Below the pieces are notes generated by a model. The model worked only from the letters and a program-made list of their open reading frames with translations. It was not told the DNA's origin and ran no database searches. From a virus (lineage: Duplodnaviria; Heunggongvirae; Uroviricota; Caudoviricetes): a stretch of DNA of 45,436 bases. A program made the translations under genes and the position numbers. Shown in pieces: positions 4,478-43,934 of this stretch; position 1 is the stretch's first letter; each line of letters opens with the position of its first letter. The stretch lies in IMG/VR virus record IMGVR_UViG_2711768004_000013; one strand, 5' to 3'.

Positions 4478-5152
4478 TTAGGCCTTTATTATGTATCTTC
4501 TTGGTTTTCCTGAGAAAATCACTGTACCAATTATAGAGCAATTACCGTTAATCTTAATGTAAGGCTCAGGCCAGTTTGGGTTTAATGCTTTGAGATAACG
4601 CTGTGTTCCATCTTCTATCAACCGCTTGAAGGTGGTTTCGCCTGTATCGTGCATCAATGCAATAACGTCGTCACCGTGGCAGGCAGGGACTTCAGGATCA
4701 ACAAAAATCATGTCTCCCGGGCGGTACTCATCAATCATTGAATCACCAATCACCCGCAAGATATAAGTCATTTCGCCACAGGGTACAGGGCAGGGATAAG
4801 TTTCTGCTGTGCTCAAATCAACCTCAGAATAGCCAACTTCTTTCCATGCTCCGGCCTGTACCCATGATATGACAGGGACTAACGTTATTTGTTTGTTAGT
4901 GATTGAAACGTCAGGTTTTTTTGTGATGTTCGTTGTCTGGTGTTCTTGATCAAGCCATCCGACAGGCAGGTCGAAACATTTTTCGATGTGCCGTGCCATG
5001 CTGTCACCGATATTTTTAGTTGCACCATCTCCCATAAACCTGCTGGTCTGGGTTGGCTCGCGATCAATCATGGTGGCAAAGGAAGAATTCCCGCCAACAC
5101 CATCTCTCAGTTTTCTGGCGTTAGACCGCCGGATGTCATGGACTGTTTTCAT
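4478..5152 (-). CDS. CI-like prophage repressor (N-terminal HTH, C-terminal S24/LexA-type peptidase domain)
   Basis: 224-aa ORF; C-terminal VIGDSM serine motif and downstream FKRL lysine typical of S24 autopeptidases; divergent from a Cro-like gene with palindromic operators between them. Confidence 0.85.
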   Translation of the reverse strand: MKTVHDIRRSNARKLRDGVGGNSSFATMIDREPTQTSRFMGDGATKNIGDSMARHIEKCFDLPVGWLDQEHQTTNITKKPDVSITNKQITLVPVISWVQAGAWKEVGYSEVDLSTAETYPCPVPCGEMTYILRVIGDSMIDEYRPGDMIFVDPEVPACHGDDVIALMHDTGETTFKRLIEDGTQRYLKALNPNWPEPYIKINGNCSIIGTVIFSGKPRRYIIKA

Positions 5153-5168
5153 AAAGAAATTAAAACCT

Positions 5169-5239
5169 TTGTACCGATAAGGTACAAGTATCTTGAAGGT
5201 TCATCTCAATCATGTAATATGTATACCGGAGGTACATAT
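5169..5239. promoter_or_regulatory. OR region: two palindromic operators and putative PR
   Basis: TTGTACCGATAAGGTACAA (5169-5187) and ATATGTATACCGGAGGTACATAT (5217-5239); between them TTGAAG, 16 nt, TAATAT forms a rightward promoter overlapping the second operator. Confidence 0.55.
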
Positions 5240-5242
5240 TGT

Positions 5243-5443
5243 ATGAAAGCGTATTGGGACTCTTTAACCAAAGAACAGCAGGGTGAGTTGGCCGGAAAAG
5301 TTGGCTCAACACCAGGCTACTTACGGCTGGTTTTCAATGGTTATAAAAAAGCCAGTTTTGTGCTGGCTAAAAAACTTGAGCAATGCACGTCAGGTGCAAT
5401 TACGAAATCTGACTTAAGACCGGATATCTATCCGAAAGATTAA
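5243..5443 (+). CDS. Cro-like small HTH regulator
   Basis: 66-aa ORF with GGAGG 9 nt upstream, immediately right of the operators and divergent from the repressor. Confidence 0.7.
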   Translation: MKAYWDSLTKEQQGELAGKVGSTPGYLRLVFNGYKKASFVLAKKLEQCTSGAITKSDLRPDIYPKD

Positions 5444-5474
5444 CAGAACACCTTCAATTTTTAACCACAGAACG

Positions 5475-6038
5475 ATGAGGCTAACCGTGGGTAAGCATCA
5501 CTGGAAAGTAGAAAAACAGCCTGAGTGGTACGTGAAAGCTGTCAGAAAAACTATCGCGGCGTTGCCGGGGGGTTACGCTGAAGCTGCTGAGTGGCTGGAT
5601 GTAACAGAGAACGCTTTATTCAACCGCCTTCGTGCAGATGGCGATCAGATTTTCCCGCTGGGATGGGCAATGATTTTACAGCGCGCGGCTGGCACTCACT
5701 ACATTGCGGATGCTGTCGCACAGTCTGCTGGTGGGGTGTTTGTATCGCTTCCTGAAATTGAGGAAGTAGAGAACGCCGATATAAACCAGCGCCTGCTGGA
5801 AGTCATCGAACAGATCGGGAGTTACTCAAAGCAGATTCGTTCGGCAATCGAAGATGGGGTAGTGGAGCCACACGAGCAGACAGCAATTAATGATGAGTTG
5901 TATCTGTCAATTTCGAAGCTCCAGGAGCATGCAGCACTGGTCTACAAAATCTTTTGCGCTCCAGAAAAGAGTGACGCCCGCGAGTGTGCAGCTCCGGGCG
6001 TCGTGGCGTTTTGTGTCTGTGGAGAAACTAACGCATGA
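5475..6038 (+). CDS. hypothetical early regulatory protein in the CII / YdaT position (possible GTG start at 5487)
   Basis: 187-aa ORF directly after cro; GAGG lies 5 nt before the GTG at 5487, none before the ATG at 5475. Confidence 0.45.
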   Translation: MRLTVGKHHWKVEKQPEWYVKAVRKTIAALPGGYAEAAEWLDVTENALFNRLRADGDQIFPLGWAMILQRAAGTHYIADAVAQSAGGVFVSLPEIEEVENADINQRLLEVIEQIGSYSKQIRSAIEDGVVEPHEQTAINDELYLSISKLQEHAALVYKIFCAPEKSDARECAAPGVVAFCVCGETNA

Positions 6039-6871
6039 ACAGTTTAACGGCAAATAACCGTTTGTCGCAACAGCTGGTGGTCAGCGTCGCTGAACACCTG
6101 TTGTTACGGCATGAATGCAGATTACCAAATCACCTGGCTGTAAGTAACCACAGAGAACTTTACCTGACTGTGGGGGGCGAGTTGTGCAGGAACTTAACCG
6201 CTGGTTTCGTGACGGAAGAGGACTTTATGTTCATGTTATTCGTTGGGAGCCAGAAACACAGCGCGTTATCTATCTTCGCAAAGACTACCCGCATGAGTGC
6301 TTTAGTCCTTTGTGGAAATTCAGGCGTGATTTTGTTGAGTGTGAAGGACCACCAGCACATTGATTCTGCCATTCCGGGACGTTACACTGTTCAGGCACCT
6401 TATAAAGCGGGTGCCGGGATTGGCGTCCTGGAATTGATCAAGGCGATATATGACGCGCCAGCGTCTTTTTTATCGTCCGCATTTGCTCACATCAAAGTTA
6501 TGGTGGGCTGGGCGGGGGCATCGAAAGATGCGCCGGTTTCCTTGATCACCGGTTACGCCAACCCCGTTCAGTTCACCACCAGCGAAATTGGCGTTTCCGG
6601 TGGTGGAAGTATTTCACCGATCAAGGAGGCTGCCATCATGGCTACTGTCCCAGCCCTCACTCGTCTGAATGATGAAGACTTACATAAACTCAGTTATGTA
6701 ACAACTGCACTACGTGCTCTGCGCAAGGTAACTCTTTCGGATCCGCAGGCACATCAGGTTCTGGTAGAAACCCTTCTTAACTTGCAAGCTGAACGTATTC
6801 GTCTGGCGGATAAGGCTAATTTTCATATTCACCGTCTCCTGAATATCAGCGGAGGGCATCGTCATGCTTAA
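6035..6871 (+). CDS. hypothetical protein (278 aa)
   Basis: ATGA overlap with the upstream stop and GGAG about 10 nt upstream; no motif I recognise. Confidence 0.45.
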   Translation: MNSLTANNRLSQQLVVSVAEHLLLRHECRLPNHLAVSNHRELYLTVGGELCRNLTAGFVTEEDFMFMLFVGSQKHSALSIFAKTTRMSALVLCGNSGVILLSVKDHQHIDSAIPGRYTVQAPYKAGAGIGVLELIKAIYDAPASFLSSAFAHIKVMVGWAGASKDAPVSLITGYANPVQFTTSEIGVSGGGSISPIKEAAIMATVPALTRLNDEDLHKLSYVTTALRALRKVTLSDPQAHQVLVETLLNLQAERIRLADKANFHIHRLLNISGGHRHA

Positions 6872-7100: not shown

Positions 7101-7915
7101 GTATGGAGCTGATGGTTAAAGCGATGAAAATTCGAGTGGGTAATCCATTGCGAAAACTGGTTCTGATCAAGCTGGCTGATAATGCCAGCGATCAGGGTGA
7201 GTGCTGGCCCAGCTACCAGCATATTGCTGACCAGTGCGAAATTAGCAAACGTTCTGTGATGAATCATATTGCGGCCCTTTGTGAGTCCGGGCTGGTAAAA
7301 AAAGTCACCCGGAAAGGTGAAAAAGGTAACTCAAGTAATATCTATCTCCTTCATCTGGATGGTGCAGGAGATTCACTAGGGGGTAGTGCAAATAATTCAC
7401 TATCTGGTGCAGCAAATTCACCAGGTAGTGCAGGAGTTGCACCAGGGGGTAGTGCAGGAGATTCACCCAGAACCAGTCACTCTTTTGAACCAGTCAAAGA
7501 ACCAGTCAATGAACCAATAGCTGTTGGTGCATCAGTTGATGAGTCCGTGCGAGTTCGTTCAAACCGACCGGAATACTCTCCGGAGTTTGAGCAGGCATGG
7601 CTGGCATATCCCAAACGTGCTGGTGGCAATTCAAAATCTGCAGCCTTCAAAGCCTGGAAAGCCCGTTTGAATGAGGGAGTAAACCCCGAAACCATGCTGG
7701 AAGGTGTGAAACGCTACGCGGGATGGGTATCTGCGATGGGTAACAGCGGCACACAATTTGTGAAACAGGCTGTCACGTTCTTTGGTCCGGATCGTCATTT
7801 CGAAGAATTCTGGGAAGTTCCTGCGGTATCTGCAGCCAGACGCGAGGACCCGTACTTCAAAGCCAGTTACGACAACGTGGACTACAGCCAGATCCCGGCA
7901 GGATTCAGGGGGTGA
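7097..7915 (+). CDS. putative replication initiator / replisome organiser (N-terminal winged-HTH, Gly/Ser-rich linker)
   Basis: 272 aa; N-terminus LRKLVLIKLADNASDQGECWPSYQHIADQCEISKRSVMNHIAALCESGLV resembles HTH_36-type phage replication proteins; GGAGG upstream. Confidence 0.6.
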   Translation: MSMELMVKAMKIRVGNPLRKLVLIKLADNASDQGECWPSYQHIADQCEISKRSVMNHIAALCESGLVKKVTRKGEKGNSSNIYLLHLDGAGDSLGGSANNSLSGAANSPGSAGVAPGGSAGDSPRTSHSFEPVKEPVNEPIAVGASVDESVRVRSNRPEYSPEFEQAWLAYPKRAGGNSKSAAFKAWKARLNEGVNPETMLEGVKRYAGWVSAMGNSGTQFVKQAVTFFGPDRHFEEFWEVPAVSAARREDPYFKASYDNVDYSQIPAGFRG

Positions 7916-7917
7916 TC

Positions 7918-8406
7918 ATGAGTCTTTTGAATGAAGTTCAGAAATTCATTGAAGCCCATCCGGGGTGTACTTCCGGAGACATTGCGGATGCTTTTGCAGG
8001 TTACTCACGGCAGCGCGTTCTGCAGTCAGCAAGCAAGTTACGTCAGAGTGGGCGTGTGGCTCACCGTTATGAAGGAGATACACGCAGACATTTCCCACGC
8101 CTGACTGAGAGAGCGCAGGAGCCGGAACCACAACCAGTTCGTGAAACCAGACCTGTGCGCAATTTCTATGTCGGCACTAACGATCCCCGGGTGATTTTGT
8201 GCCTGACCCGCCAGGCGGAAGAACTGGAGTCCAGGGGCTTATACCGTCGTGCTGCAACGGTGTGGATGGCGGCATTCCGTGAAAGCCACTCCCAGCCAGA
8301 ACGAAACAATTTTCTGGCGCGTCGTGAGCGGTGCTTACGGAAAAGCAGCAAGCGCGCTGCATCGGGTGAAGAGTGGTATCTGTCAGGGAATTACGTGGGG
8401 GCTTAA
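7918..8406 (+). CDS. hypothetical protein with a PerC-like motif (possible transcriptional regulator)
   Basis: ATG at 7918 preceded by GGGGG; segment ESRGLYRRAATVWMAAF resembles PerC-family regulators; low certainty. Confidence 0.45.
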   Translation: MSLLNEVQKFIEAHPGCTSGDIADAFAGYSRQRVLQSASKLRQSGRVAHRYEGDTRRHFPRLTERAQEPEPQPVRETRPVRNFYVGTNDPRVILCLTRQAEELESRGLYRRAATVWMAAFRESHSQPERNNFLARRERCLRKSSKRAASGEEWYLSGNYVGA

Positions 8407-9059
8407 TGAGTAATAAATATTGCCAGGCGCTGGTGGAGCTGCGGAACAAACCAGCCCATGAACTGAAGGAAGTGGGCGATCAGTGGCGCACGCCGGATAA
8501 CATTTTCTGGGGAATTAACACCCTGTTTGGCCCGTTTGTTCTGGATCTGTTCACTGATGGTGATAACGCCAAATGTGCCGCTTATTACACTGCGGAAGAC
8601 AACGCGCTGGCGCATGACTGGTCTGAACGTCTTGCGGAGCTTAAAGGTGCTGCCTTTGGTAATCCCCCGTACAGCCGCGCCAGTCAGCATGAAGGGCAAT
8701 ACATCACCGGCATGCGTTACATCATGAAACATGCCAGTGCCATGCGTGATAAGGGCGGACGCTATGTTTTCCTGATCAAAGCTGCCACCAGCGAAGTGTG
8801 GTGGCCGGAAGATGCAGATCATATTGCTTTTATTCGCGGGCGTATTGGTTTTGAACTGCCTGCCTGGTTTATCCCGAAGGACGAGAAGCAGGTGCCGACA
8901 GGCGCTTTCTTCGCTGGTGCTATTGCTGTTTTCGACAAGACCTGGAAGGGACCGGCAATCAGCTACATCGGGCGCGATGAACTTGAGGCATGTGGTGAGG
9001 CGTTTCTGGCGCAGGTTCGCCAGCAGGCGGAAAAACTGGTCAGGGAGATGGCGGCATGA
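8406..9059 (+). CDS. phage DNA N6-adenine methyltransferase (Dam-like, orphan)
   Basis: 217 aa with an NPPY catalytic motif (AAFGNPPYSR); TAATG start/stop overlap with the upstream gene; no adjacent restriction endonuclease candidate. Confidence 0.75.
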   Translation: MSNKYCQALVELRNKPAHELKEVGDQWRTPDNIFWGINTLFGPFVLDLFTDGDNAKCAAYYTAEDNALAHDWSERLAELKGAAFGNPPYSRASQHEGQYITGMRYIMKHASAMRDKGGRYVFLIKAATSEVWWPEDADHIAFIRGRIGFELPAWFIPKDEKQVPTGAFFAGAIAVFDKTWKGPAISYIGRDELEACGEAFLAQVRQQAEKLVREMAA

Positions 9060-9382
9060 CGACGTTAACTCAATGCCAGCAGCAGGTGCTGGATATGCTG
9101 ATTTCTTACCAGAAAGAACGTGGCTTCCCGCCAACCAATCAGGAGGTGGCAACCATGCTGGGATACCGTTCAGTGAATGCAGCGGTGGAACATCTTCGCG
9201 CACTGGAGAAAAAAGGCGTCATCACGATAAAGCGTGGCATGGCCCGGGGTATCACTCTTCATACCGCGGTGAAGGACGACGACAGCGAGGCGGTCGGGAT
9301 TATCCGCTCACTGCTTGCCGGTGAGGAAAACGCCAGGCTGCGTGCAACCCACTGGTTACATGAGAGAGGCCTGAAAGTATGA
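9056..9382 (+). CDS. LexA-like DNA-binding-domain-only protein
   Basis: 108 aa; QQQVLDMLISYQKERGFPPTNQEVATMLGYRSVNAAVEHLRALEKKGVI closely parallels the LexA N-terminal winged HTH; no S24 peptidase domain follows. Confidence 0.65.
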   Translation: MTTLTQCQQQVLDMLISYQKERGFPPTNQEVATMLGYRSVNAAVEHLRALEKKGVITIKRGMARGITLHTAVKDDDSEAVGIIRSLLAGEENARLRATHWLHERGLKV

Positions 9383-9768
9383 AGCTGATCCTGCCTTTCC
9401 CGCCCAGCGTGAACACGTACTGGCGACACCCCAACAAAGGGGCATTTGCTGGTAAGAGCCTGATAAGCGCGGCGGGGCGAAAATTTCAGAGCGCGGCGTG
9501 CGCAGCAATAGTTGAGCAGTTACGTCGTCTGCCAAAACCAACGTCGGCACCTGCTTCAGTGGAGATCGTGTTGTTTCCTCCGGATAACCGGATCCGCGAT
9601 CTGGACAACTATAACAAGGCGCTGTTTGACGCCCTGACCCACGCGGGGGTGTGGGAAGACGACAGCCAGGTGAAAAGAATGCTGGTGGAGTGGGGACCGG
9701 TTATCCAGAAAGGGAAGGTCGAGATCACTATCAGTAAGTATGAGAAACCGGCGGGTGCAGCCGCCTGA
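9379..9768 (+). CDS. rusA: RusA-type Holliday junction resolvase
   Basis: 129 aa; LPFPPSVNTYWRH and DLDNYNKALFDALT motifs characteristic of RusA. Confidence 0.85.
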   Translation: MKLILPFPPSVNTYWRHPNKGAFAGKSLISAAGRKFQSAACAAIVEQLRRLPKPTSAPASVEIVLFPPDNRIRDLDNYNKALFDALTHAGVWEDDSQVKRMLVEWGPVIQKGKVEITISKYEKPAGAAA

Positions 9769-9787
9769 TCAAGAGGAGAAACGAAGT

Positions 9788-10597
9788 ATGAATAATCTGA
9801 TGGTCATTGATGGTATTGAAGTTCGTCGTGATGCTTATGGGCGTTACAGCCTGAACGATCTGCACAGGGCAGCCGGGGGAGAACAAAAAAACCGCCCGAA
9901 ATACTGGCTCTCCAATAAGCAAACCTGTGAATTGATTGAACAACTTTTCACCGAGGGTGGAATTCCGCCTCTGGAACAAAATCAACCAGTTAGCGTCATT
10001 AATGGCGGAAATAACCAGGGGACGTATGTCTGCAAAGAACTGGTGTATGCCTATGCAATGTGGATCAGCCCGTCATTCCATCTGAAGGTGATCCGTACTT
10101 TCGACATGGTAACCAGCGCACCGGAAAAATTATCCGGACAGGCTGCTGACAAGATGCAGGCTGGCGTGATCCTGCTGGACTTTATGCGCCGGGAATTAAA
10201 TCTGTCTAACTCATCAGTGCTTGGAGCCTGTCAGAAGCTTCAGGAGGCTGTTGGCTTACCGAATCTGGCACCGCGCTATGCCATTGATGCTCCTGCTGAC
10301 GCGCCTGATGGCTCAAGTCGCCCCACGCTGTCGCTGAGTGCACTGCTGAAGCAGTATGGTATCCGCCTGACGGCTAATCAGGCATATCACCAGATGGTGA
10401 AGCTGGGGATCGTTGAACAACGCGAACGATACAGCCGTACCGCGATTAACAACATCAAAAAATTCTGGTCGCTGACGGCGAAAGGCTGCATGTTCGGCAA
10501 GAACATCACCAGTCCTGCAAATCCGCGCGAGACGCAGCCGCATTTCTTCGAATCCCGATTCCCTGAGCTGTTAAAGCTGCTCGATACCGTTCATTGA
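9788..10597 (+). CDS. KilA-N domain protein (putative antirepressor)
   Basis: N-terminal MNNLMVIDGIEVRRDAYGRYSLNDLHRAAG fits the KilA-N domain; GAGGAG upstream. Confidence 0.6.
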   Translation: MNNLMVIDGIEVRRDAYGRYSLNDLHRAAGGEQKNRPKYWLSNKQTCELIEQLFTEGGIPPLEQNQPVSVINGGNNQGTYVCKELVYAYAMWISPSFHLKVIRTFDMVTSAPEKLSGQAADKMQAGVILLDFMRRELNLSNSSVLGACQKLQEAVGLPNLAPRYAIDAPADAPDGSSRPTLSLSALLKQYGIRLTANQAYHQMVKLGIVEQRERYSRTAINNIKKFWSLTAKGCMFGKNITSPANPRETQPHFFESRFPELLKLLDTVH

Positions 10598-10598
10598 G

Positions 10599-11594
10599 GT
10601 GACCGTGAGAGCACTACTGACCCCTGAAATTGCCCCGCGTATGGGGATCGTATTGTTCAGGCCAGGTTCAGAGCTGATGCCCCTGTTTATGCAGGGGCGT
10701 GTTCTGCTGGAGCCTGAGCCGGAACGTTATTCATCTTTCGCCAGTGGTGCCGTTCCGGCGGCATCACAACCGCTGGCGGATGATCCTGCCGTTCGGGCCG
10801 TGTTCCGCAATGAGGCAGTGATCCGTCGTGCTGGTGGCGTGGAATGTCTTGAAAGCTGGTTACTTCGTGAAAAAGGCTGCCAGTGGCCTCATTCCGACTG
10901 GCACAGCGAGAACATGACCACAATGCGACACGCTCCGGGCGCAATCCGTCTGTGCTGGCACTGCGATAACCAGCTGCGCGATCAGTTCACGGAACGGCTG
11001 GAATCAATGGCAACGGATAACTGTGCCCGCTGGGTGTTGTCTGTTGTGCGTCGGGATCTCGGTTTTGATGATAGTCACGTTGTGACAATGCCGGAACTGT
11101 GCTGGTGGCTGATTCGTAATGACCTGGCGGATGCCTTACCGGAAAGTGCAGCCCGTAAGGCACTGAGATTACCAAAGCCTGTTGTGCCGTCTGTCACCCG
11201 GGAAAGTGACCTTGTGCCTTCGGTTCCTGCCACCAGCATCATCCAGGATAAGGCAAAAAAGGTGCTGGCGCTGAAAGTGGATCCGGAGTCGCCGGAGTCT
11301 TTTATGTTACGCCCAAAACGCCGCCGCTGGGTTAATGAAAAGTACACGCGCTGGGTTAAGACACAGCCGTGTGCATGTTGTGGAAAGCCTGCTGATGATC
11401 CCCACCACCTGATAGGCCACGGTCAGGGTGGAATGGGTACAAAAGCGCATGACCTCTTTGTGTTGCCTTTGTGCAGAAAGCATCACGACGAGCTGCATGC
11501 GGATACCGTGGCATTTGAAGAGAAGTATGGCTCCCAGCTGGAGCTGATATTTCGTTTTATCGATCGTGCGCTGGCAATTGGCGTATTGGCGTAA
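10599..11594 (+). CDS. DUF968-like protein with HNH-like Cys/His C-terminus (GTG start; alternatives at 10605 or 10638)
   Basis: C-terminal CACCGKPADDPHHLIGHGQGG...CRKHHDELH Cys/His cluster typical of DUF968/HNH-like prophage proteins. Confidence 0.55.
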   Translation: MTVRALLTPEIAPRMGIVLFRPGSELMPLFMQGRVLLEPEPERYSSFASGAVPAASQPLADDPAVRAVFRNEAVIRRAGGVECLESWLLREKGCQWPHSDWHSENMTTMRHAPGAIRLCWHCDNQLRDQFTERLESMATDNCARWVLSVVRRDLGFDDSHVVTMPELCWWLIRNDLADALPESAARKALRLPKPVVPSVTRESDLVPSVPATSIIQDKAKKVLALKVDPESPESFMLRPKRRRWVNEKYTRWVKTQPCACCGKPADDPHHLIGHGQGGMGTKAHDLFVLPLCRKHHDELHADTVAFEEKYGSQLELIFRFIDRALAIGVLA

Positions 11595-11607
11595 GTGGAG
11601 AACGAGC

Positions 11608-12360
11608 ATGAACCTTGAAGCCTTACCAAAATATTACTCCCCAAAATCTCCAAAATTGAGCGATGACGCACCGGCGACAGGCTCAGGTGGTTTAACGATT
11701 ACGGATGTGATGGCTGCGCAGGGGATGGTGCAGTCGAAAGCACCGCTTGGGTTTGCCTTATTCCTGGCAAAAGTTGGTGTTCAGGATCCTCAATTTGCGA
11801 TTGAAGGTCTGCTCAATTACGCGATGGCACTGGATAACCCGACATTGAACAAATTGAGTGAAGAAACCCGGTTACAGATCATCCCTTACCTTGTGAATTT
11901 TGCCTTTGCTGATTATTCCAGGTCTGCGGCAAGTAAGGCTCGCTGTGAGCATTGTGCTGGTACTGGATTTCATAATGTATTGCGCGAAGTGGTGAAACAC
12001 TCCAGAAGCGGGGAATCTGTTATCAAGGAAGAGTGGGTGAAGGAACTATGTCAGCATTGCCATGGTAAGGGAGAAGTCAGCACAGCGTGCAGAGGGTGTA
12101 AGGGTAAAGGTATTGTCCTGGATGAAAAAAGAACCCGGCTTCATGGTGTGCCTGTTTATAAGATTTGTGGGCGTTGCAATGGCAACCGGTTTAGCCGTTT
12201 ACCAACCACACTGGCGCGGCATCATGTCCAGAAACTGGTACCGGACCTGACGGATTATCAGTGGTACAAAGGATATGCAGACGTTATTAATAAACTGGTT
12301 ACAAAGTGCTGGCAGGAAGAAGCGTATGCTGAATCGCAATTGAGAAAAGTGACAAGATAG
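11608..12360 (+). CDS. late-gene antiterminator Q-like protein
   Basis: 250 aa with a CxxC...CxxC zinc-finger-like cluster; positioned directly upstream of a strong promoter plus terminator (PR-prime / tR-prime arrangement). Confidence 0.7.
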   Translation: MNLEALPKYYSPKSPKLSDDAPATGSGGLTITDVMAAQGMVQSKAPLGFALFLAKVGVQDPQFAIEGLLNYAMALDNPTLNKLSEETRLQIIPYLVNFAFADYSRSAASKARCEHCAGTGFHNVLREVVKHSRSGESVIKEEWVKELCQHCHGKGEVSTACRGCKGKGIVLDEKRTRLHGVPVYKICGRCNGNRFSRLPTTLARHHVQKLVPDLTDYQWYKGYADVINKLVTKCWQEEAYAESQLRKVTR

Positions 12361-13642: not shown

Positions 13643-14695
13643 ATGAAAAATACTGTAAAAATAAACAGTGTTGATTTAATCAACGCTGATTGCCTGCATT
13701 TTATTCAGTCCCTGCCTGATGATTCCATTGACCTGATTGTTACCGATCCGCCTTACTTCAAGGTGAAACCCAACGGTTGGGACAATCAGTGGAAAGGGGA
13801 CGAAGATTACCTTAAGTGGCTGGACCACTGTCTGGCCCAGTTCTGGCGGGTGTTGAAACCTGCCGGAAGCCTTTACCTGTTCTGTGGGCATCGCCTGGCA
13901 TCTGATATTGAGATCATGATGCGTGAACGTTTCAACGTGCTTAACCATATCATCTGGGCGAAGCCGTCCGGACGTTGGAATGGGTGTAATAAAGAAAGTC
14001 TGCGCGCATATTTTCCTGCCACAGAGCGCGTTCTGTTTGCTGAACATTACCAGGGGCCATATCGCGGCAAAAGTGACGGCTATGCGGCAAAAGAAAGGGA
14101 ACTCAAACAGCACATAATGGCACCGCTGATATCGTATTTCAGGGATGCTCGTGCCGAACTGGGTATAACGGCAAAACAAATTGCCGAAGCCACAGGTAAG
14201 AAAAATATGGTTTCCCACTGGTTTGGTGCCAGTCAGTGGCAGTTGCCGAATGAGGCTGACTATCGGAAGTTACAGGCACTGTTTTCCCGTATAGCGGCAG
14301 AGAAGTTTCAGGAACAACAACTGGAACAACCACACCACCAGCTGGTGGCATCTTATGATTCACTGAATCGTAAATATTCTGAATTGCTGGATGAGTTTAA
14401 ATCTCTCCGGCGCTATTTCTCCGTATCAGTCTCCGTGCCTTATACCGATGTCTGGATGCATAAACCCGTTCAGTTCTACCCGGGGAAACATCCGTGTGAG
14501 AAACCGGCGGATATGCTCAGGCAAATAATCAATGCCAGTAGTCGACCAGGTGATCTGGTTGCTGATTTTTTTATGGGATCCGGTTCCACAATAAAAGCAG
14601 CAATGGCGCTGGGGCGTCGGGCCTTAGGTGTTGAGCTTGAGTCAGAGCGGTTTAATCAGACAGTGAAAGAGATAAACGAGCTGGTGGGGAAATAA
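13643..14695 (+). CDS. DNA methyltransferase (N6/N4 type, DPPY motif; orphan)
   Basis: 350 aa; N-terminal IVTDPPYF catalytic motif and C-terminal [11 protein letters not shown]-binding motif; no nearby endonuclease candidate. Confidence 0.8.
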
Positions 14696-31517: not shown

Positions 31518-32062
31518 AAACGGGGTCCGAAGCCATCCGGGCGCTGGCCATGCAGATCCCGGCGTTTCGTCAGAAACTGAATGAGGGCTGGTATCAGGTG
31601 CGCATTGCCGGGCGTGATGCAGGCGAAAATGAATTATCTGCCCGTCTTAATGAGCCGCTGGCAAATGGTGCCGTGATCCACATCGTGCCGCGTCTGGCGG
31701 GAGCTAAAAGTGGCGGTGTGTTTCAGGTGGTGCTTGGGGCGGCGCTGATTGCGGTGGCATGGTGGAACCCTGTGGGCTGGCTGGGGGCCGCGGCTGTATC
31801 GGGCATGTATGCGGCAGGGGCCAGTATGATCCTGGGCGGAGTGGCGCAGATGCTGGCACCGAAAGCCAGGACGCCCACGGCAGCCAGTACAGATAACGGC
31901 AAACAGAACACCTATTTCTCCTCACTGGATAACATGGTTGCCCAGGGCAATGTTCTGCCTGTTCTGTACGGTGAAATGCGCGTGGGGTCACGTGTGGTTT
32001 CTCAGGAGATCAGCACGGCAGACGAAGGGGATGGTGGTCAGGTTGTGGTGATTGGTCGCTGA
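31415..32062 (+). CDS. tail assembly protein (gpI-like); alternative GTG start at 31514 overlapping the K stop
   Basis: C-terminal hydrophobic Gly/Ala-rich segment and ...NVLPVLYGEMRVGSRVVSQEIS... as in lambda gpI. Confidence 0.7.
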   Translation: MAATHTLPLASPGMARICLYGDLQRFGRRIDLRVKTGSEAIRALAMQIPAFRQKLNEGWYQVRIAGRDAGENELSARLNEPLANGAVIHIVPRLAGAKSGGVFQVVLGAALIAVAWWNPVGWLGAAAVSGMYAAGASMILGGVAQMLAPKARTPTAASTDNGKQNTYFSSLDNMVAQGNVLPVLYGEMRVGSRVVSQEISTADEGDGGQVVVIGR

Positions 32063-40405: not shown

Positions 40406-41776
40406 CTATGATATCCCTGAAATGTCCTCTTCAAGCTCTTTTACTGATTTCGCAATTTTAAATTTAAATTTTCTCTCTATTTCACTATTGCTAAGTTTTT
40501 TTTCATTCTCTTTCCCTATCCACATAGAAACAATTTCTCGTTTCTGAGATATATGTAGATTGTCAAAGTTAGGTATGTATTTAAAAGTCTCCGCTCTACC
40601 CCTGCGGAGTTCATAGAAAGTTTTAATCAAAGACTTTGGTTTTATTTCTGATGAAAGGCCGAATCGGCGGATAAGATTATTGATCGTATGATTAACAGCT
40701 CGAAGTTGAGCTGTTGACGTTATTTGTGAGAAGTACGATACCCATCCCAATCGTTTACCTTCAAACACACATCCCGTAATTCTAAGATTTAGTTTCCACT
40801 GACAATATGCAACAGCTCGTTCTTTATCGCGCTTATTTTTAGCTTGTAGTAGAGCGTGTCTATATGCAGTAAAAATTTTTGCTAAGGATGACTCAAATCT
40901 AAGAATGCTCTCATGTTTTATCAATAATTCTCGATTTTTTATGTGGTAGCCCAAAAAGTTGAAACTTTCATCCAAGCTGCCTACTTTGGATTTTGAGTTC
41001 TCTTCATTTAATGGATGTGGGTTTAAATTTAATGATTGAAGCTTATCAATGATATGAGAAGCTATTTTTGTTGCTTGATATTTTGGTGTTAAAATAAGAA
41101 TGTCATCAACGTATCGCATGTACCATATGTCATGCATTTTATTGATTTCATCATCGAAATTAGATAGTGATATTTCAGCTAAAATGTTTGATATCGCTAA
41201 TCCCTGAGGTACTCCTCTGGTATTATTAGGGATACCTTTGCTTCCTGTGGTTCCACTTACAGTAGGCACGATTAATGATGATGTTATTAACTGTCTAATT
41301 TCTTTTTTTCTAATTTTATTTTTTATTGCATTAATTATCAATTTATGTTCAATTGAAGGATAGAAACTTTTAAGATCTATTTTTGCATATTCAGCATATA
41401 GACTGTTGTTTAATGCTTCTTTCAATGAGTCAATTACTGTATGTGGTAGTTTTAATCTGGACTTAGGATATATTTCCGTAAGGCATTCACAGAGAGCTCT
41501 AAGAGTAATTCTGTCCCTAGCAGTTGGTATGGAAATCTGTCTGGGTGTAGAGTTAGCGCCTTTAGATATTAATTTTTCTTTATATGCTGTAAATTTGTAA
41601 TTGCCAGAATTAACCTTTTCAAAAATGAAAGTGATCTCATTTTTTATTGTCAAATCAAGTTTTGATGGGCGAATCCGATCTATGCCAATCGCTCCTGATT
41701 CTTTGATTTTTTCAGAGTATACTTTTAGAAGATTTTTTTTCGAGAATGACTTTTTAAAAATTCTGCTTGCAGTCAT
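40406..41776 (-). CDS. reverse transcriptase (retron / group-II-like catalytic motifs; probable defence-associated RT)
   Basis: 456 aa from the ATG at 41776 (ORF track extends to a TTG at 41782); motifs in order: GIDRIRP, RQISIPTARDR, IDLKSFYPSI (motif A), GVPQGLAISNILAEI (motif B), YMRYVDDILIL (motif C, YVDD), FNFLGYHI (motif E), RITG in the thumb; AT-rich; overlaps the upstream membrane-protein gene by 23 nt. Confidence 0.8.
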   Translation of the reverse strand: MTASRIFKKSFSKKNLLKVYSEKIKESGAIGIDRIRPSKLDLTIKNEITFIFEKVNSGNYKFTAYKEKLISKGANSTPRQISIPTARDRITLRALCECLTEIYPKSRLKLPHTVIDSLKEALNNSLYAEYAKIDLKSFYPSIEHKLIINAIKNKIRKKEIRQLITSSLIVPTVSGTTGSKGIPNNTRGVPQGLAISNILAEISLSNFDDEINKMHDIWYMRYVDDILILTPKYQATKIASHIIDKLQSLNLNPHPLNEENSKSKVGSLDESFNFLGYHIKNRELLIKHESILRFESSLAKIFTAYRHALLQAKNKRDKERAVAYCQWKLNLRITGCVFEGKRLGWVSYFSQITSTAQLRAVNHTINNLIRRFGLSSEIKPKSLIKTFYELRRGRAETFKYIPNFDNLHISQKREIVSMWIGKENEKKLSNSEIERKFKFKIAKSVKELEEDISGIS

Positions 41777-42305
41777 AGTCAATCCAAAGATATATTAATG
41801 GGAGTATATAAAGTGCGGCAGTAATAAATATTCGAAGTAATATCCATAAAATAACAATTATTTTTTCTTTTTGTGTGGGGATCCTCGTCTTAAGTCCAAC
41901 TTGAGTTACCCTTGAAATTTTATCATCTATGTCACGGTGATTCTCAACCTCATTGAGCAAATTAAAATATTTTTCTTTCTGTTCAAGAGATAACTGTTGA
42001 CTGGTGGTAATGTCAAAATAGAGTCGCTGTAGTGCAATATAATTCCTTCTCATGGCTATTGCTCGACCACGAAAATCTAGGTTAGATACGATCAGAGAAA
42101 TACCCAGTAGAGCCACTGAAAGTATCGCCGCAACGACATCTGTATTATCTCCTAGAACCTTTGGAAATCGCAACGTTACAATTGAAAGTACCGCACTCAA
42201 TATAGCATACCAAACGAGGATAAATTGAGAGTGTTTTTCAAGCCATTCTAGTCGATGGTGCGCTTGGATACGTGCTTTATATGTAAACCAAATATTGTCA
42301 TGCAT
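41754..42305 (-). CDS. small multi-TM membrane protein (2TM / SLATT-like), putative effector of the RT system
   Basis: 183 aa; two adjacent hydrophobic helices near the N-terminus, a predicted helical soluble stretch, and a C-terminal hydrophobic helix; AAGGA 6 nt before the ATG at 42305. Confidence 0.6.
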   Translation of the reverse strand: MHDNIWFTYKARIQAHHRLEWLEKHSQFILVWYAILSAVLSIVTLRFPKVLGDNTDVVAAILSVALLGISLIVSNLDFRGRAIAMRRNYIALQRLYFDITTSQQLSLEQKEKYFNLLNEVENHRDIDDKISRVTQVGLKTRIPTQKEKIIVILWILLRIFITAALYILPLIYLWIDYDCKQNF

Positions 42306-42527: not shown

Positions 42528-42776
42528 TTAATGAACAAACCACTCGTCAGCAGACTCCCAGGTATCTTTCAGAGTCTCCTGAACAAAAGTTTTAGCTGAA
42601 TCTTTATCAGCGGTGCGCGTAACAGAAAGGCCATCGTTGCTGGTGGCTTTTACGATCACTTCTACATCGTCATAACGTTTACTGATGCGTCGGGTTAATT
42701 CTTCCTTTAACGCATCCACAGCACCGGTTGGCATTTTAGTCATTTTTTCTTTGGCTATGCAGATTTCAATACGCAT
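42528..42776 (-). CDS. DinI-like DNA-damage-inducible protein
   Basis: 82 aa; [11 protein letters not shown]... and ...[16 protein letters not shown] parallel E. coli DinI; GGGGA Shine-Dalgarno; two LexA boxes in its promoter region. Confidence 0.8.
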
Positions 42777-42790
42777 AAAAGTCCCCTACA

Positions 42791-42834
42791 CTGTATTTGT
42801 ATACAGTATTATTTTTAACTGTATGGATAAACAG
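42791..42834. promoter_or_regulatory. two tandem LexA (SOS) boxes upstream of the dinI-like gene
   Basis: CTGTATTTGTATACAG (42791-42806) and CTGTATGGATAAACAG (42819-42834), both CTGT-N8-ACAG. Confidence 0.55.
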
Positions 42835-42836
42835 TG

Positions 42837-43934
42837 TCAAGAGGTCTTATTTCTGCTCCTTTGGAGTTCTTCAAAACGATTATGTAAAGATTTCGGATAC
42901 AGTTCGGTATATACCTGCCATAGCACGTTTAATGAACGATGCCCTGTAACCTGAGCGACTTCCTCAATACTAAAACCAGCCTCAAATAAGCGACTTGCCC
43001 CTTCTCTACGCAAATCATGGTATCTCAGATCTTTAATACCTAATTTGCTTCTTACCCTCTGAAATCCTGCGGTAACAGAAGTGCTGTTATATGGAAAAAT
43101 GAATTCTGATTTTTTGGGTTGTCGCTGGACGATATCCCAGGCTTCCCCAAGCAAGGCAACTTTCATATGGTTGCCTTCCTTTTTACGTGGATCTTTCCTG
43201 TCTCTTACTAGTATAGATTTTTGTTCCTGGTCGAGATCTTCCCATCGTAACCGGCATACTTCTCCGATTCGCATACAGGACCACACAGAAAATTTGAGGA
43301 TATCAACGAACGGAATTTTTGAGCATTTATGAGTAGATCGTTGTTGAAGGCCTTCAATGAGCATGTTCAGTTCATCAGATGCTGGTCTACGATTACGACG
43401 GTTTGATTTACCAATCAAACCGAGTTTAAGTAGATATGGACGAGCGCTTTTCGCCGGGTTTGATGTGTAATTGATTCCGTATACAGGTTTTGCCGCATCC
43501 AGAACACTGCCAAGATAACTAACATCGTGGCTGACTGTTGCTGGGCCTGCACCAGCGTTGTTTCTTAGCCTGCAATGTTCAATTACGTCATTTTCTGTCA
43601 GTTCAGATAGTTTGATCGCGGAGATGTCACTATCCATAAGCAGTTCCAGCACATATCTTTTAGTACGGCCTGCTTTACCTCCGGCATTTGGGTCATTTAA
43701 ATATTTGTGTAGTAAGTCACGGACTGTAAGTCCGTCAACAGCATTTGATGATGGAATGCCATATAGATCTAATTCCATCACTTTCTGTGCGCCCCATGTT
43801 TTGGCATGAGCATGTTTAGGGAATGTTTTGCTTTCCCTGTAAGTGATAACACCTTTTTCTTTGATAATCACATTACAGCGATAGCGTGGTGTGCCATCGG
43901 ATTTTAGTCGTTTCTCTATGTTATAGTACGCCAT
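42837..43934 (-). CDS. int: tyrosine integrase (dusA-associated type)
   Basis: 365 aa; C-terminal catalytic residues in HDLRREGASRLF, VTGHRS and LWQVYTE; immediately adjacent to dusA. Confidence 0.9.
   Translation of the reverse strand: MAYYNIEKRLKSDGTPRYRCNVIIKEKGVITYRESKTFPKHAHAKTWGAQKVMELDLYGIPSSNAVDGLTVRDLLHKYLNDPNAGGKAGRTKRYVLELLMDSDISAIKLSELTENDVIEHCRLRNNAGAGPATVSHDVSYLGSVLDAAKPVYGINYTSNPAKSARPYLLKLGLIGKSNRRNRRPASDELNMLIEGLQQRSTHKCSKIPFVDILKFSVWSCMRIGEVCRLRWEDLDQEQKSILVRDRKDPRKKEGNHMKVALLGEAWDIVQRQPKKSEFIFPYNSTSVTAGFQRVRSKLGIKDLRYHDLRREGASRLFEAGFSIEEVAQVTGHRSLNVLWQVYTELYPKSLHNRFEELQRSRNKTS

Follow-up and report, generated by a model that had tools for sequence, protein, structure and literature searches.

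The window, as we call the whole 45,436-nucleotide stretch of DNA analysed here (IMG/VR virus record IMGVR_UViG_2711768004_000013, Caudoviricetes), contains a small gene for a 108-residue protein that has the DNA-binding domain of LexA and lacks its peptidase domain. The source prophage is lambdoid and resembles mEp460, cdtI and SfV, and its early-right genes run in the order cro-like, CII-like, Ash, replication protein, PerC (YfdN), Dam, LexA-like, RusA, KilA-N, DUF968/HNH and Q. The LexA-like gene, an open reading frame (ORF) with an ATG start, overlaps both of its neighbours, sharing an ATGA with the stop codon of dam (9056–9059) and a second ATGA with the start codon of rusA (9379–9382). 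The coordinates of these and other features are collected in Table 1.

In a Pfam scan, residues 1–65 of the protein matched the entire 65-position LexA_DNA_bind model (PF01726, E=2.1e-19, 69.5 bits against a cut-off of 23.7), and no second domain was found, PF00717 being unmatched. TIGR00498, the equivalog model of complete LexA, scored 71.3 bits against a cut-off of 110.95 and was matched only over positions 1–91 of 203, so the S24 half is absent; the protein stops at residue 108, and a LexA-type C-terminal Peptidase_S24 domain with the Ser119/Lys156 dyad was not found in it. A LexA-type winged helix-turn-helix (HTH) lacking S24 cannot undergo LexA-style self-cleavage on activated RecA. The best match among solved structures was the DNA-binding domain of E. 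coli LexA (1lea, E=9e-16; 3jso also reached about 1e-15), and in the HMMER alignment to 1lea 15 of the 21 positions of the recognition region (residues 36–56, GYRSVNAAVEHLRALEKKGVI) are identical. An AlphaFold2 model built from a 16-sequence family alignment (mean predicted local distance difference test score, pLDDT, 82.9) was superposed by Foldseek, over residues 1–68, on DNA-bound LexA 3jso with a root-mean-square deviation of 0.9 Å over 68 residues and 50% identity. The model predicts helices at residues 6–22, 28–35 and 40–52, the last being the recognition helix (9173–9211), followed by a two-stranded wing (56–58 and 66–68). An earlier note on this DNA, made from its letters alone, had described a recognition region that follows LexA almost residue for residue in a protein without an S24 domain; both descriptions are borne out, and the alignments show a HTH of the LexA type.

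The same note had treated the protein as equivalent to LexA residues 1–85, which is correct for the winged HTH and leaves out a conserved tail that is under selection. The protein matches phrog_362, a family labelled 'transcriptional repressor', at E=4.3e-59, residues 1–108 aligning with positions 1–106 of the 106-position profile. Distant relatives, sought by a profile-free search of 1.8 billion representative proteins, are 105–135 residues long, align over their whole length at 40–50% identity, and likewise match phrog_362 end to end. In the AlphaFold2 model the tail consists of a low-confidence linker (residues 71–74) and two helices (74–88 and 93–103). This C-terminal hairpin is kept across the 16 aligned members, with hydrophobic residues at positions 82/83/86/87 and 94/97/100/101, of which A97 and L101 are invariant. 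In each of four subfamilies the Nei-Gojobori ratio of non-synonymous to synonymous substitution (dN/dS) lies at 0.06–0.20 when the entire gene is taken and near 0.2 over its final 38 codons; head and tail are both under purifying selection. Because the S24 domain also supplies the dimer interface of LexA, the hairpin is the obvious candidate for that role, and we suggest, from the model, that this family-specific element is probably a dimerisation module standing in place of the S24 domain.

The HMMER alignment extends to LexA residue 86 and pairs the segment LLAGE of the window protein with VAAGE of LexA. We considered whether this might be a remnant cleavage site cut in trans and rejected the idea: the AG is AN or VG in close relatives and is missing from distant ones, the segment is predicted to be helical, and a conserved Ala84-Gly85 cleavage site was not found across the phrog_362 members aligned. 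Other arrangements of LexA DNA-binding domains were also seen, including a C-terminal fusion to DUF968/HNH (P0159, 240 residues), which is either real or a frameshift, and pairs of tandem LexA DNA-binding domains without S24 (P0132, P0134, P0146, P0150 and more).

The residues of helix III through which E. coli LexA contacts DNA are S39, N41, A42, E44 and E45 (PMC3091678). The window protein keeps four of these five, E44 being replaced by V. Across the 16 members S39 is kept in all, N41 in 15, A42 in 11 and E45 in 13, while the adjacent H46 and L47 are each kept in 14; K53 and the wing residues R64, G65 and I66 (RGI) are kept in 16 of 16.

The gene is common. Among 5426 complete E. coli genomes it was found in 2233 (about 40%), with at least 90% nucleotide identity in nearly all of them, and 665 contigs encode the identical protein, which they name 'LexA family transcriptional regulator'. 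It is also carried by phages SfV (as orf42), SfII, SfIV, mEp460, cdtI, 1720a-02, Stx2a and Stx2c. The labels that it bears in thousands of genomes ('LexA family transcriptional regulator', 'LexA repressor' and 'transcriptional repressor') are all homology-based; the earlier note had passed over this existing annotation, in bacterial genomes and known phages alike.

No credible sigma-70 promoter was found on the plus strand between 7000 and 9056. A lysogenic promoter for dam, the LexA-like gene and rusA that is given in the SfV record (TTGCGC-15-TACGGA) was considered and set aside, being a poor match that has decayed further in the window (TGGCGC) and that the scan did not detect. Because neither a credible promoter nor an SOS box of its own was found on the 5' side of the LexA-like gene, we infer that it is expressed as a delayed-early gene, after inactivation of the S24-type prophage repressor. 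That repressor would set the timing of the early-right operon and hence of the LexA-like gene, which is probably translationally coupled within the series perC, dam, lexA-like, rusA, kilA, DUF968 and Q. Synthesis of the LexA-like protein would then wait for cleavage of the prophage repressor, and host LexA is being cleaved at that same moment.

Several SOS boxes lie elsewhere in the window. The exact pattern CTGT-N8-ACAG occurs four times against 0.58 expected, a count reached in 0 of 100 shuffles, and a position weight matrix (PWM) finds three strong sites against 0.07 expected (at 13651, 42789 and 42817). The matrix, built from E. coli operators and used with a threshold of 16 bits, is approximate; it does recover the experimentally defined Gifsy-2 box. 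A fourth exact match, at 6138, lies within the ORF of the Ash-family protein, fails the matrix and is probably due to chance. Two of the strong sites belong to the promoter of a dinI-like gene on the minus strand, where a perfect TTGACA −35 element lies at 42836–42841, box 2 fills the spacer and box 1 follows the −10 element. This is an unusually tight double operator, and mEp460 and cdtI share the same design. The earlier note had claimed a dinI-like gene behind two canonical LexA boxes (cores 42791–42806 and 42819–42834), an S24 domain in the prophage repressor, and, more generally, SOS wiring as a recurring theme of this prophage. The first two claims were confirmed, and the prophage does carry SOS-wired elements. 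Between the tail-fibre genes and the dinI-like gene we also observed a defence pair on the minus strand (40406–42305), in which a reverse transcriptase of class UG17 (PADLOC RT_UG17, E=1e-158) overlaps a two-transmembrane SLATT effector (RTasSLATT, E=3.5e-56).

The third strong site lies at the very start of a late-region DNA methyltransferase gene. A box is found at the same place in other phages, for example SfV (34170), mEp460 (41021), cdtI (44083) and loci L163 and L178, among others. In diverged phages the spacer and the encoded peptide vary (K to N, I to L, N to Y) and the arms stay CTGT and ACAG or CCAG.

Table 1. Positions in the window of the LexA-like gene, its parts, its neighbours and candidate SOS operators.
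Feature	Position	Strand	Basis or remark
Prophage repressor with S24 domain (YmfK-like)	4478..5152	-	PF00717, E=1.5e-26; annotation of identical locus
PerC-family (YfdN-like) transcriptional activator	7912-8406	+	Two genes 5' of the LexA-like gene; present in most type A loci
Phage Dam-type N6-adenine methyltransferase	8373..9059 (RefSeq start equivalent to 8406)	+	Pfam PF05869, E=1e-45; RefSeq annotation of identical locus
Shine-Dalgarno-like GGGAG	9043..9047	+	8 nt 5' of the ATG; read from the sequence
Gene for the LexA-DNA-binding-domain-only protein (phrog_362 member)	9056..9382, stop codon included	+	ORF list; Pfam PF01726; phrog_362
LexA-type winged HTH, residues 1-69	9056..9262	+	AlphaFold2 model; Foldseek against 3jso; HMMER against 1lea
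Tail, residues 70-108: linker and predicted helical hairpin	9263..9379	+	AlphaFold2 model; 16-member alignment; dN/dS
RusA Holliday-junction resolvase	9379..9768	+	Pfam PF05866; synteny
Q antiterminator, late control	11566-12360		
Late-region N6_N4 DNA methyltransferase gene	13643-14695		
Candidate operator, SOS-box-like palindrome TACTGTAAAAATAAACAGTG	13651..13670	.	PWM 22.7 bits; codons 3-9 of the N6_N4 DNA methyltransferase gene
DinI-like gene, putatively controlled by the two boxes below	42534..42776	-	Pfam PF06183, E=1e-19
Candidate operator, SOS box 1 CACTGTATTTGTATACAGTA	42789..42808 (CTGT-N8-ACAG core 42791-42806)	.	Exact pattern; PWM 23.6 bits; just downstream of the -10 element
Candidate operator, SOS box 2 AACTGTATGGATAAACAGTG	42817..42836 (core 42819-42834)	.	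Exact pattern; PWM 21.2 bits; between the -35 and -10 elements

The surroundings of related genes from four subfamilies were fetched from IMG/VR, with up to 10 kb on each side, and fall into two types. Type A takes in the E. coli, mEp390-like P0130 and P0129 groups together with loci L204–209. In essentially every one of these loci rusA follows directly on the 3' side (start offset +317 to +344) with DUF968 at about +1.45 kb; the phages have S24-type repressors, and no SOS box was found within 1.5 kb upstream of the LexA-like gene. For the E. coli-type loci this negative covers the 77 with enough sequence, none of which has a candidate autoregulatory box within 1500 bp upstream.

The 28 loci of the P0139 clade (L177–L203 and L210) form type B; their nearest genome matches are Klebsiella and Enterobacter. 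Here an exact CTGT-N8-ACAG lies within 1500 bp upstream of the gene in 27 of the 28 loci (at 435–1463 bp), the exception being L193, with its nearest box 1862 bp upstream. A terminator-like hairpin comes before the box, which itself overlaps promoter hexamers or lies directly against them; in L177, for example, a terminator (9371–9388) is followed by TTGCAA-17-AATAAT (9394–9422) and the box (9425–9440). The box heads a tightly packed, co-directional string of genes in which phrog_1813, the LexA-like gene, phrog_1212 and DUF968 come after dinI (present in 20 of the 28 loci), a umuD-like gene (in eight) and recA (in three), the RecA protein (PF00154, E=3e-135) being encoded behind two tandem boxes. 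The phage repressor of these loci is a 128-residue HTH-only protein in 16 of 23 and of the S24 type in none of the 23. Because the gene sits in a string headed by an SOS box and shared with dinI, the truncated LexA of type B is, to judge from this arrangement, most probably an SOS-induced protein co-transcribed with DinI, itself a modulator of the SOS response. Re-binding of the type B product to the box of its own operon would mirror the autoregulation of lexA in a RecA-proof form.

Further details of type B were noted in passing. In L193 the nin region holds an SOS cassette (7637–11558) in which a UmuD-like protein (phrog_3469) behind its own box and RecA behind two tandem boxes are followed by DinI, phrog_1813, the LexA-like protein and phrog_1212, in a phage whose repressor is the 128-residue HTH-only protein. 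The phrog_1813 product, 82–87 residues long in type B and with no assigned function, is a candidate antirepressor; its identification with the antirepressor of the Gifsy phages was tried and found no link at the PHROG level, GftA belonging to phrog_4847. In L177 a leader of 150 nt separates the SOS box from phrog_1813 and contains a conserved inverted repeat at about 9445–9500 (GGGAGGAAT...ATTATCCTCC), which could fold into a hairpin sequestering a Shine-Dalgarno-like GGAGG. Among the E. coli-type loci, 26 of 80 have a near-consensus box TACTGTTTTTACATACAGTA (25.6 bits; for example L003 at 5588, in a minus-strand ORF at 5122–5814, and likewise mEp460 at 31970) that lies within the coding sequence of a CI-like HTH+S24 repressor, at the linker between the two domains. 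In L021 (12116–12131) and also L042, L055 and L059, the start codon ATG of a KilA-N variant about 2 kb 3' of the LexA-like gene falls within an SOS-like box, TACTGTATTTATGAACAGTG.

Exact CTGT-N8-ACAG sites were counted in the flanks of the related genes and compared with the mononucleotide expectation. They are enriched in the E. coli group (95 observed against 20 expected), the P0129 group (13 against 3.4) and the P0139 group (50 against 9.2). When the spacing of CTGT-Nx-ACAG was varied from x=0 to x=16, only x=8 was enriched in distinct sequence contexts around the gene; the peaks seen at other spacings (x=1, 6 and 15 in the P0130 group) proved to come from conserved coding sequence, in one case that of the gene itself. 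As a matched control, 80 loci were chosen by the lysozyme gene of the window, and the 52 with at least 8 kb upstream (20 carriers and 32 non-carriers of the LexA-like gene) were scanned with the weight matrix. Sites of at least 16 bits were found in 17 of the 20 carriers and 8 of the 32 non-carriers, or 1.0 against 0.25 per 10 kb, a contrast (nominal Fisher p=4e-5) that is only suggestive because the loci are related and the boxes lie in modules physically linked to the gene.

We conclude that the protein is very probably a sequence-specific, RecA-insensitive DNA-binding regulator of the LexA type. That it acts on SOS boxes as a surrogate for LexA is a more balanced matter, for which we consider the chances, as judged from the sequences, to be about even; this functional reading is plausible and has gained circumstantial support, the strongest being the operon position of the gene in type B, and it is unproven. 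The mechanism that we propose combines the winged HTH of a gammaproteobacterial LexA with a two-helix hairpin, which would provide the dimerisation normally supplied by S24. The dimer would read CTGT-type half-sites, that is, SOS boxes or close variants, and as an uncleavable surrogate would shut LexA-controlled promoters again during lytic growth. In the phage its candidate targets are the promoter of the dinI-like gene and the box at the start of the methyltransferase gene, and outside it host SOS genes and the LexA-gated antirepressor operons of co-resident prophages. Extended to the family, the proposal would make the members of the widespread phrog_362 RecA-proof stand-ins that re-occupy SOS boxes after the cleavage of host LexA, produced either from a delayed-early operon (in E. 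coli, Shigella and Stx phages) or, together with DinI, from an operon gated by an SOS box (in Klebsiella and Enterobacter). We offer this generalisation, which is drawn from comparison of the loci, tentatively and regard it as somewhat doubtful.

Several observations weigh against a role at SOS boxes. The isolated N-terminal domain of LexA binds its operators weakly, so the surrogate model hangs on the predicted dimer geometry. Three positions of the reading head that are nearly constant among the full-length LexAs sampled are changed in the family: R28 is not arginine in any of the 16 members (N, Y, Q, M, T, V, L or C instead), E44 is non-acidic in all 16, and alanine replaces S63 in 13 of 16. 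The protein may therefore bind with a specificity or affinity unlike that of LexA; the earlier note had overlooked the replacement of R28 and E44. With its core retained and its periphery altered, the reading head fits SOS-box binding at a tuned affinity and would also allow a shifted specificity. In the mEp390-like P0130 group exact boxes are not enriched (20 observed against 21.7 expected), and in the window no SOS box lies within 1.5 kb upstream of the LexA-like gene. Non-carriers, too, have a box at the start of the methyltransferase gene, as the variant ...ATCCAGTT. Under the exact pattern this box had seemed restricted to carriers (12 of 12, against 0 of 6 non-carriers), but only because so strict a pattern misses the CTG-N10-CAG form that non-carriers have at the same place. 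The contrast between carriers and non-carriers is confounded by linkage and shared ancestry, and gp6 of the Bacillus tectivirus GIL01, the sole characterised truncated phage homologue of LexA that we found, binds a different palindrome and activates transcription.

It is this last precedent that lends substance to the idea of a LexA-derived head that has drifted to a private, non-SOS operator, repressing or activating phage genes of the nin or late region with no direct action on host boxes. Binding of GaCACAnnTGTGaC by gp6, overlapping the −35 element of the late promoter P3, activates P3 (Fornelos et al., 2018; PMC6182141). A counterpart of that late-promoter site was not identified in the window, where the late genes are controlled by Q. 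Because gp6 shows that private operators, and even activation, can be acquired, we keep this explanation in consideration while thinking it unlikely; the family-wide replacement of R28, E44 and S63 and the lack of nearby SOS-box enrichment in the P0130 subfamily also speak for it. The recognition helix of the window protein is, however, far nearer to that of E. coli LexA (S39, N41, A42, A43, E45, H46 and L47 are kept), no other spacing of CTGT arms is enriched (among x=0–16, the spacings counted; no full de novo motif search was made), late activation in lambdoid phages already comes from Q, and the sister clade has the gene inside SOS-box operons. That sister clade bears equally on the improbable alternative that the protein is an accessory or architectural factor for RusA and Dam, targeting or timing RusA or binding DNA with low specificity. 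Low-specificity binding has been suggested for other small HTH proteins of the nin region, a DNA methyltransferase gene is often found upstream, and the overlap with the start of rusA on its 3' side is kept in essentially all type A loci across subfamilies only 40–50% identical. RusA is nevertheless absent in the sister clade, where the neighbours are dinI, phrog_1813 and phrog_1212, and the strong conservation of base-reading residues argues for sequence-specific binding.

Action through SOS boxes might also take the form of interference with host LexA, by competition for boxes without repression or by mixed wing-to-wing complexes, such that the SOS response would be prolonged or reshaped. 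The invariant wing residues R64-G65-I66 are in keeping with such complexes, as the wings of the two LexA subunits reportedly meet in the same minor groove in the structure 3jso. An occupant of an operator overlapping the −10 element or the +1 position would, however, itself block RNA polymerase, and the conserved tail peculiar to the family suggests self-association, and we consider interference very improbable. A decaying, functionless fragment of a captured lexA could account for an alignment that runs on to LexA residue 86 and for the resemblance of LLAGE to VAAGE. The dN/dS values of head and tail in four subfamilies remove this pseudogene reading, and the conserved length of 105–135 residues, the conserved C-terminal hairpin, the presence of the gene in some 40% of complete E. 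coli genomes and the variation of the AG to AN or VG all run counter to it, so that we regard it as effectively refuted.

Returning to the LexA surrogate, its consequences would reach beyond the phage itself. Under the family-wide reading, the SOS response and the SOS-gated module of the phage would become a pulse, and the LexA-gated antirepressor operons of rival prophages would be silenced. If the protein does occupy SOS boxes, an induced lysogen would switch off the SOS-dependent functions of repair, mutagenesis and toxin and colicin expression along with the induction of competitor prophages, and RecA could not undo this. The carriers are medically relevant, including Shiga-toxin phages (Stx2a, Stx2c and 1720a-02), the cytolethal-distending-toxin phage cdtI and the serotype-converting Shigella phages SfV, SfII and SfIV, and the proposal, if true, would bear on Shiga-toxin release after antibiotics, on SOS-driven evolution of resistance and on competition between prophages. 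No functional study of the enterobacterial protein was found in the literature, in which earlier work in subscription journals may exist. A preprint on the 1720a-02 'bully phage' ascribes cross-repression of a co-resident prophage to Cro and leaves this gene unmentioned.

The nearest known relative is E. coli LexA itself (1lea and 3jso), with which the window protein shares the winged-HTH fold, about 50% identity over residues 1–69, the SxNAAxEHLxAL helix and the RGI wing. It differs from LexA in having a 35-residue helical hairpin instead of the S24 protease and dimerisation domain with its catalytic Ser and Lys, and in the replacement of R28, E44 and S63, and its gene differs from E. coli lexA in being carried by a phage, in a nin operon, and in having, in the window, no SOS box of its own ahead of it. 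The organisation of the type B loci recalls that of the Gifsy prophages. In the nin region of those phages, whose repressors do not undergo cleavage, a terminator and a LexA box are followed by dinI and the gene of a small antirepressor (Lemire et al., 2011; PMC3121763). Both share the terminator, a promoter with a LexA box, dinI, a small ORF and repressors without a cleavage domain. The Gifsy phages have no LexA-DNA-binding-domain gene (they are absent among the tblastn matches), their small ORF belongs to phrog_4847 and that of type B to phrog_1813, and their third gene, irsA, matches phrog_319 (annotated NinB/Orf-like). The window prophage departs from the Gifsy layout in its S24 repressor and in the lack of a box ahead of the LexA-like gene. 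In its proposed outcome, the repression of SOS promoters despite activated RecA, the protein resembles the non-inducible LexA mutants (lexA3/G85D and S119A), GIL01 gp7, Listeria AriS (PMC9043618) and DinI. These act through uncleavable LexA, through binding of LexA or RecA, or by other routes, whereas a separate protein competing for operators is proposed here, and the likeness to these SOS-damping mutants and phage proteins is functional only and itself part of the proposal.

Phage-borne truncated homologues of LexA are thus already known, while the proteobacterial family that joins a winged HTH to a hairpin is uncharacterised. The closest parallel is GIL01 gp6, which shares 44% identity with the LexA of B. 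thuringiensis (Fornelos et al., 2018) and comes from a phage with a life cycle tied to the LexA of its host. Like the window protein, gp6 is a phage-encoded homologue of LexA that lacks the S24 domain; it has 66 residues, no hairpin and an origin in the LexA of Firmicutes, whereas the window protein has the conserved extra hairpin. Membership of a single family was considered and rejected, BLASTP giving no alignment at E<=100 and the best PHROG of gp6 being phrog_3502 (E=2e-21); cross-matches exist, of gp6 to phrog_362 at 2.8e-5 over the DNA-binding domain only and of the window protein to phrog_3502 at 1e-14. On these comparisons the two proteins are independent reductions of LexA from different bacterial lineages. 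The enterobacterial family, if it does act as we propose, would thus add to GIL01 gp6 a second and independent example in which a phage has put the reading head of its host's LexA to use again.

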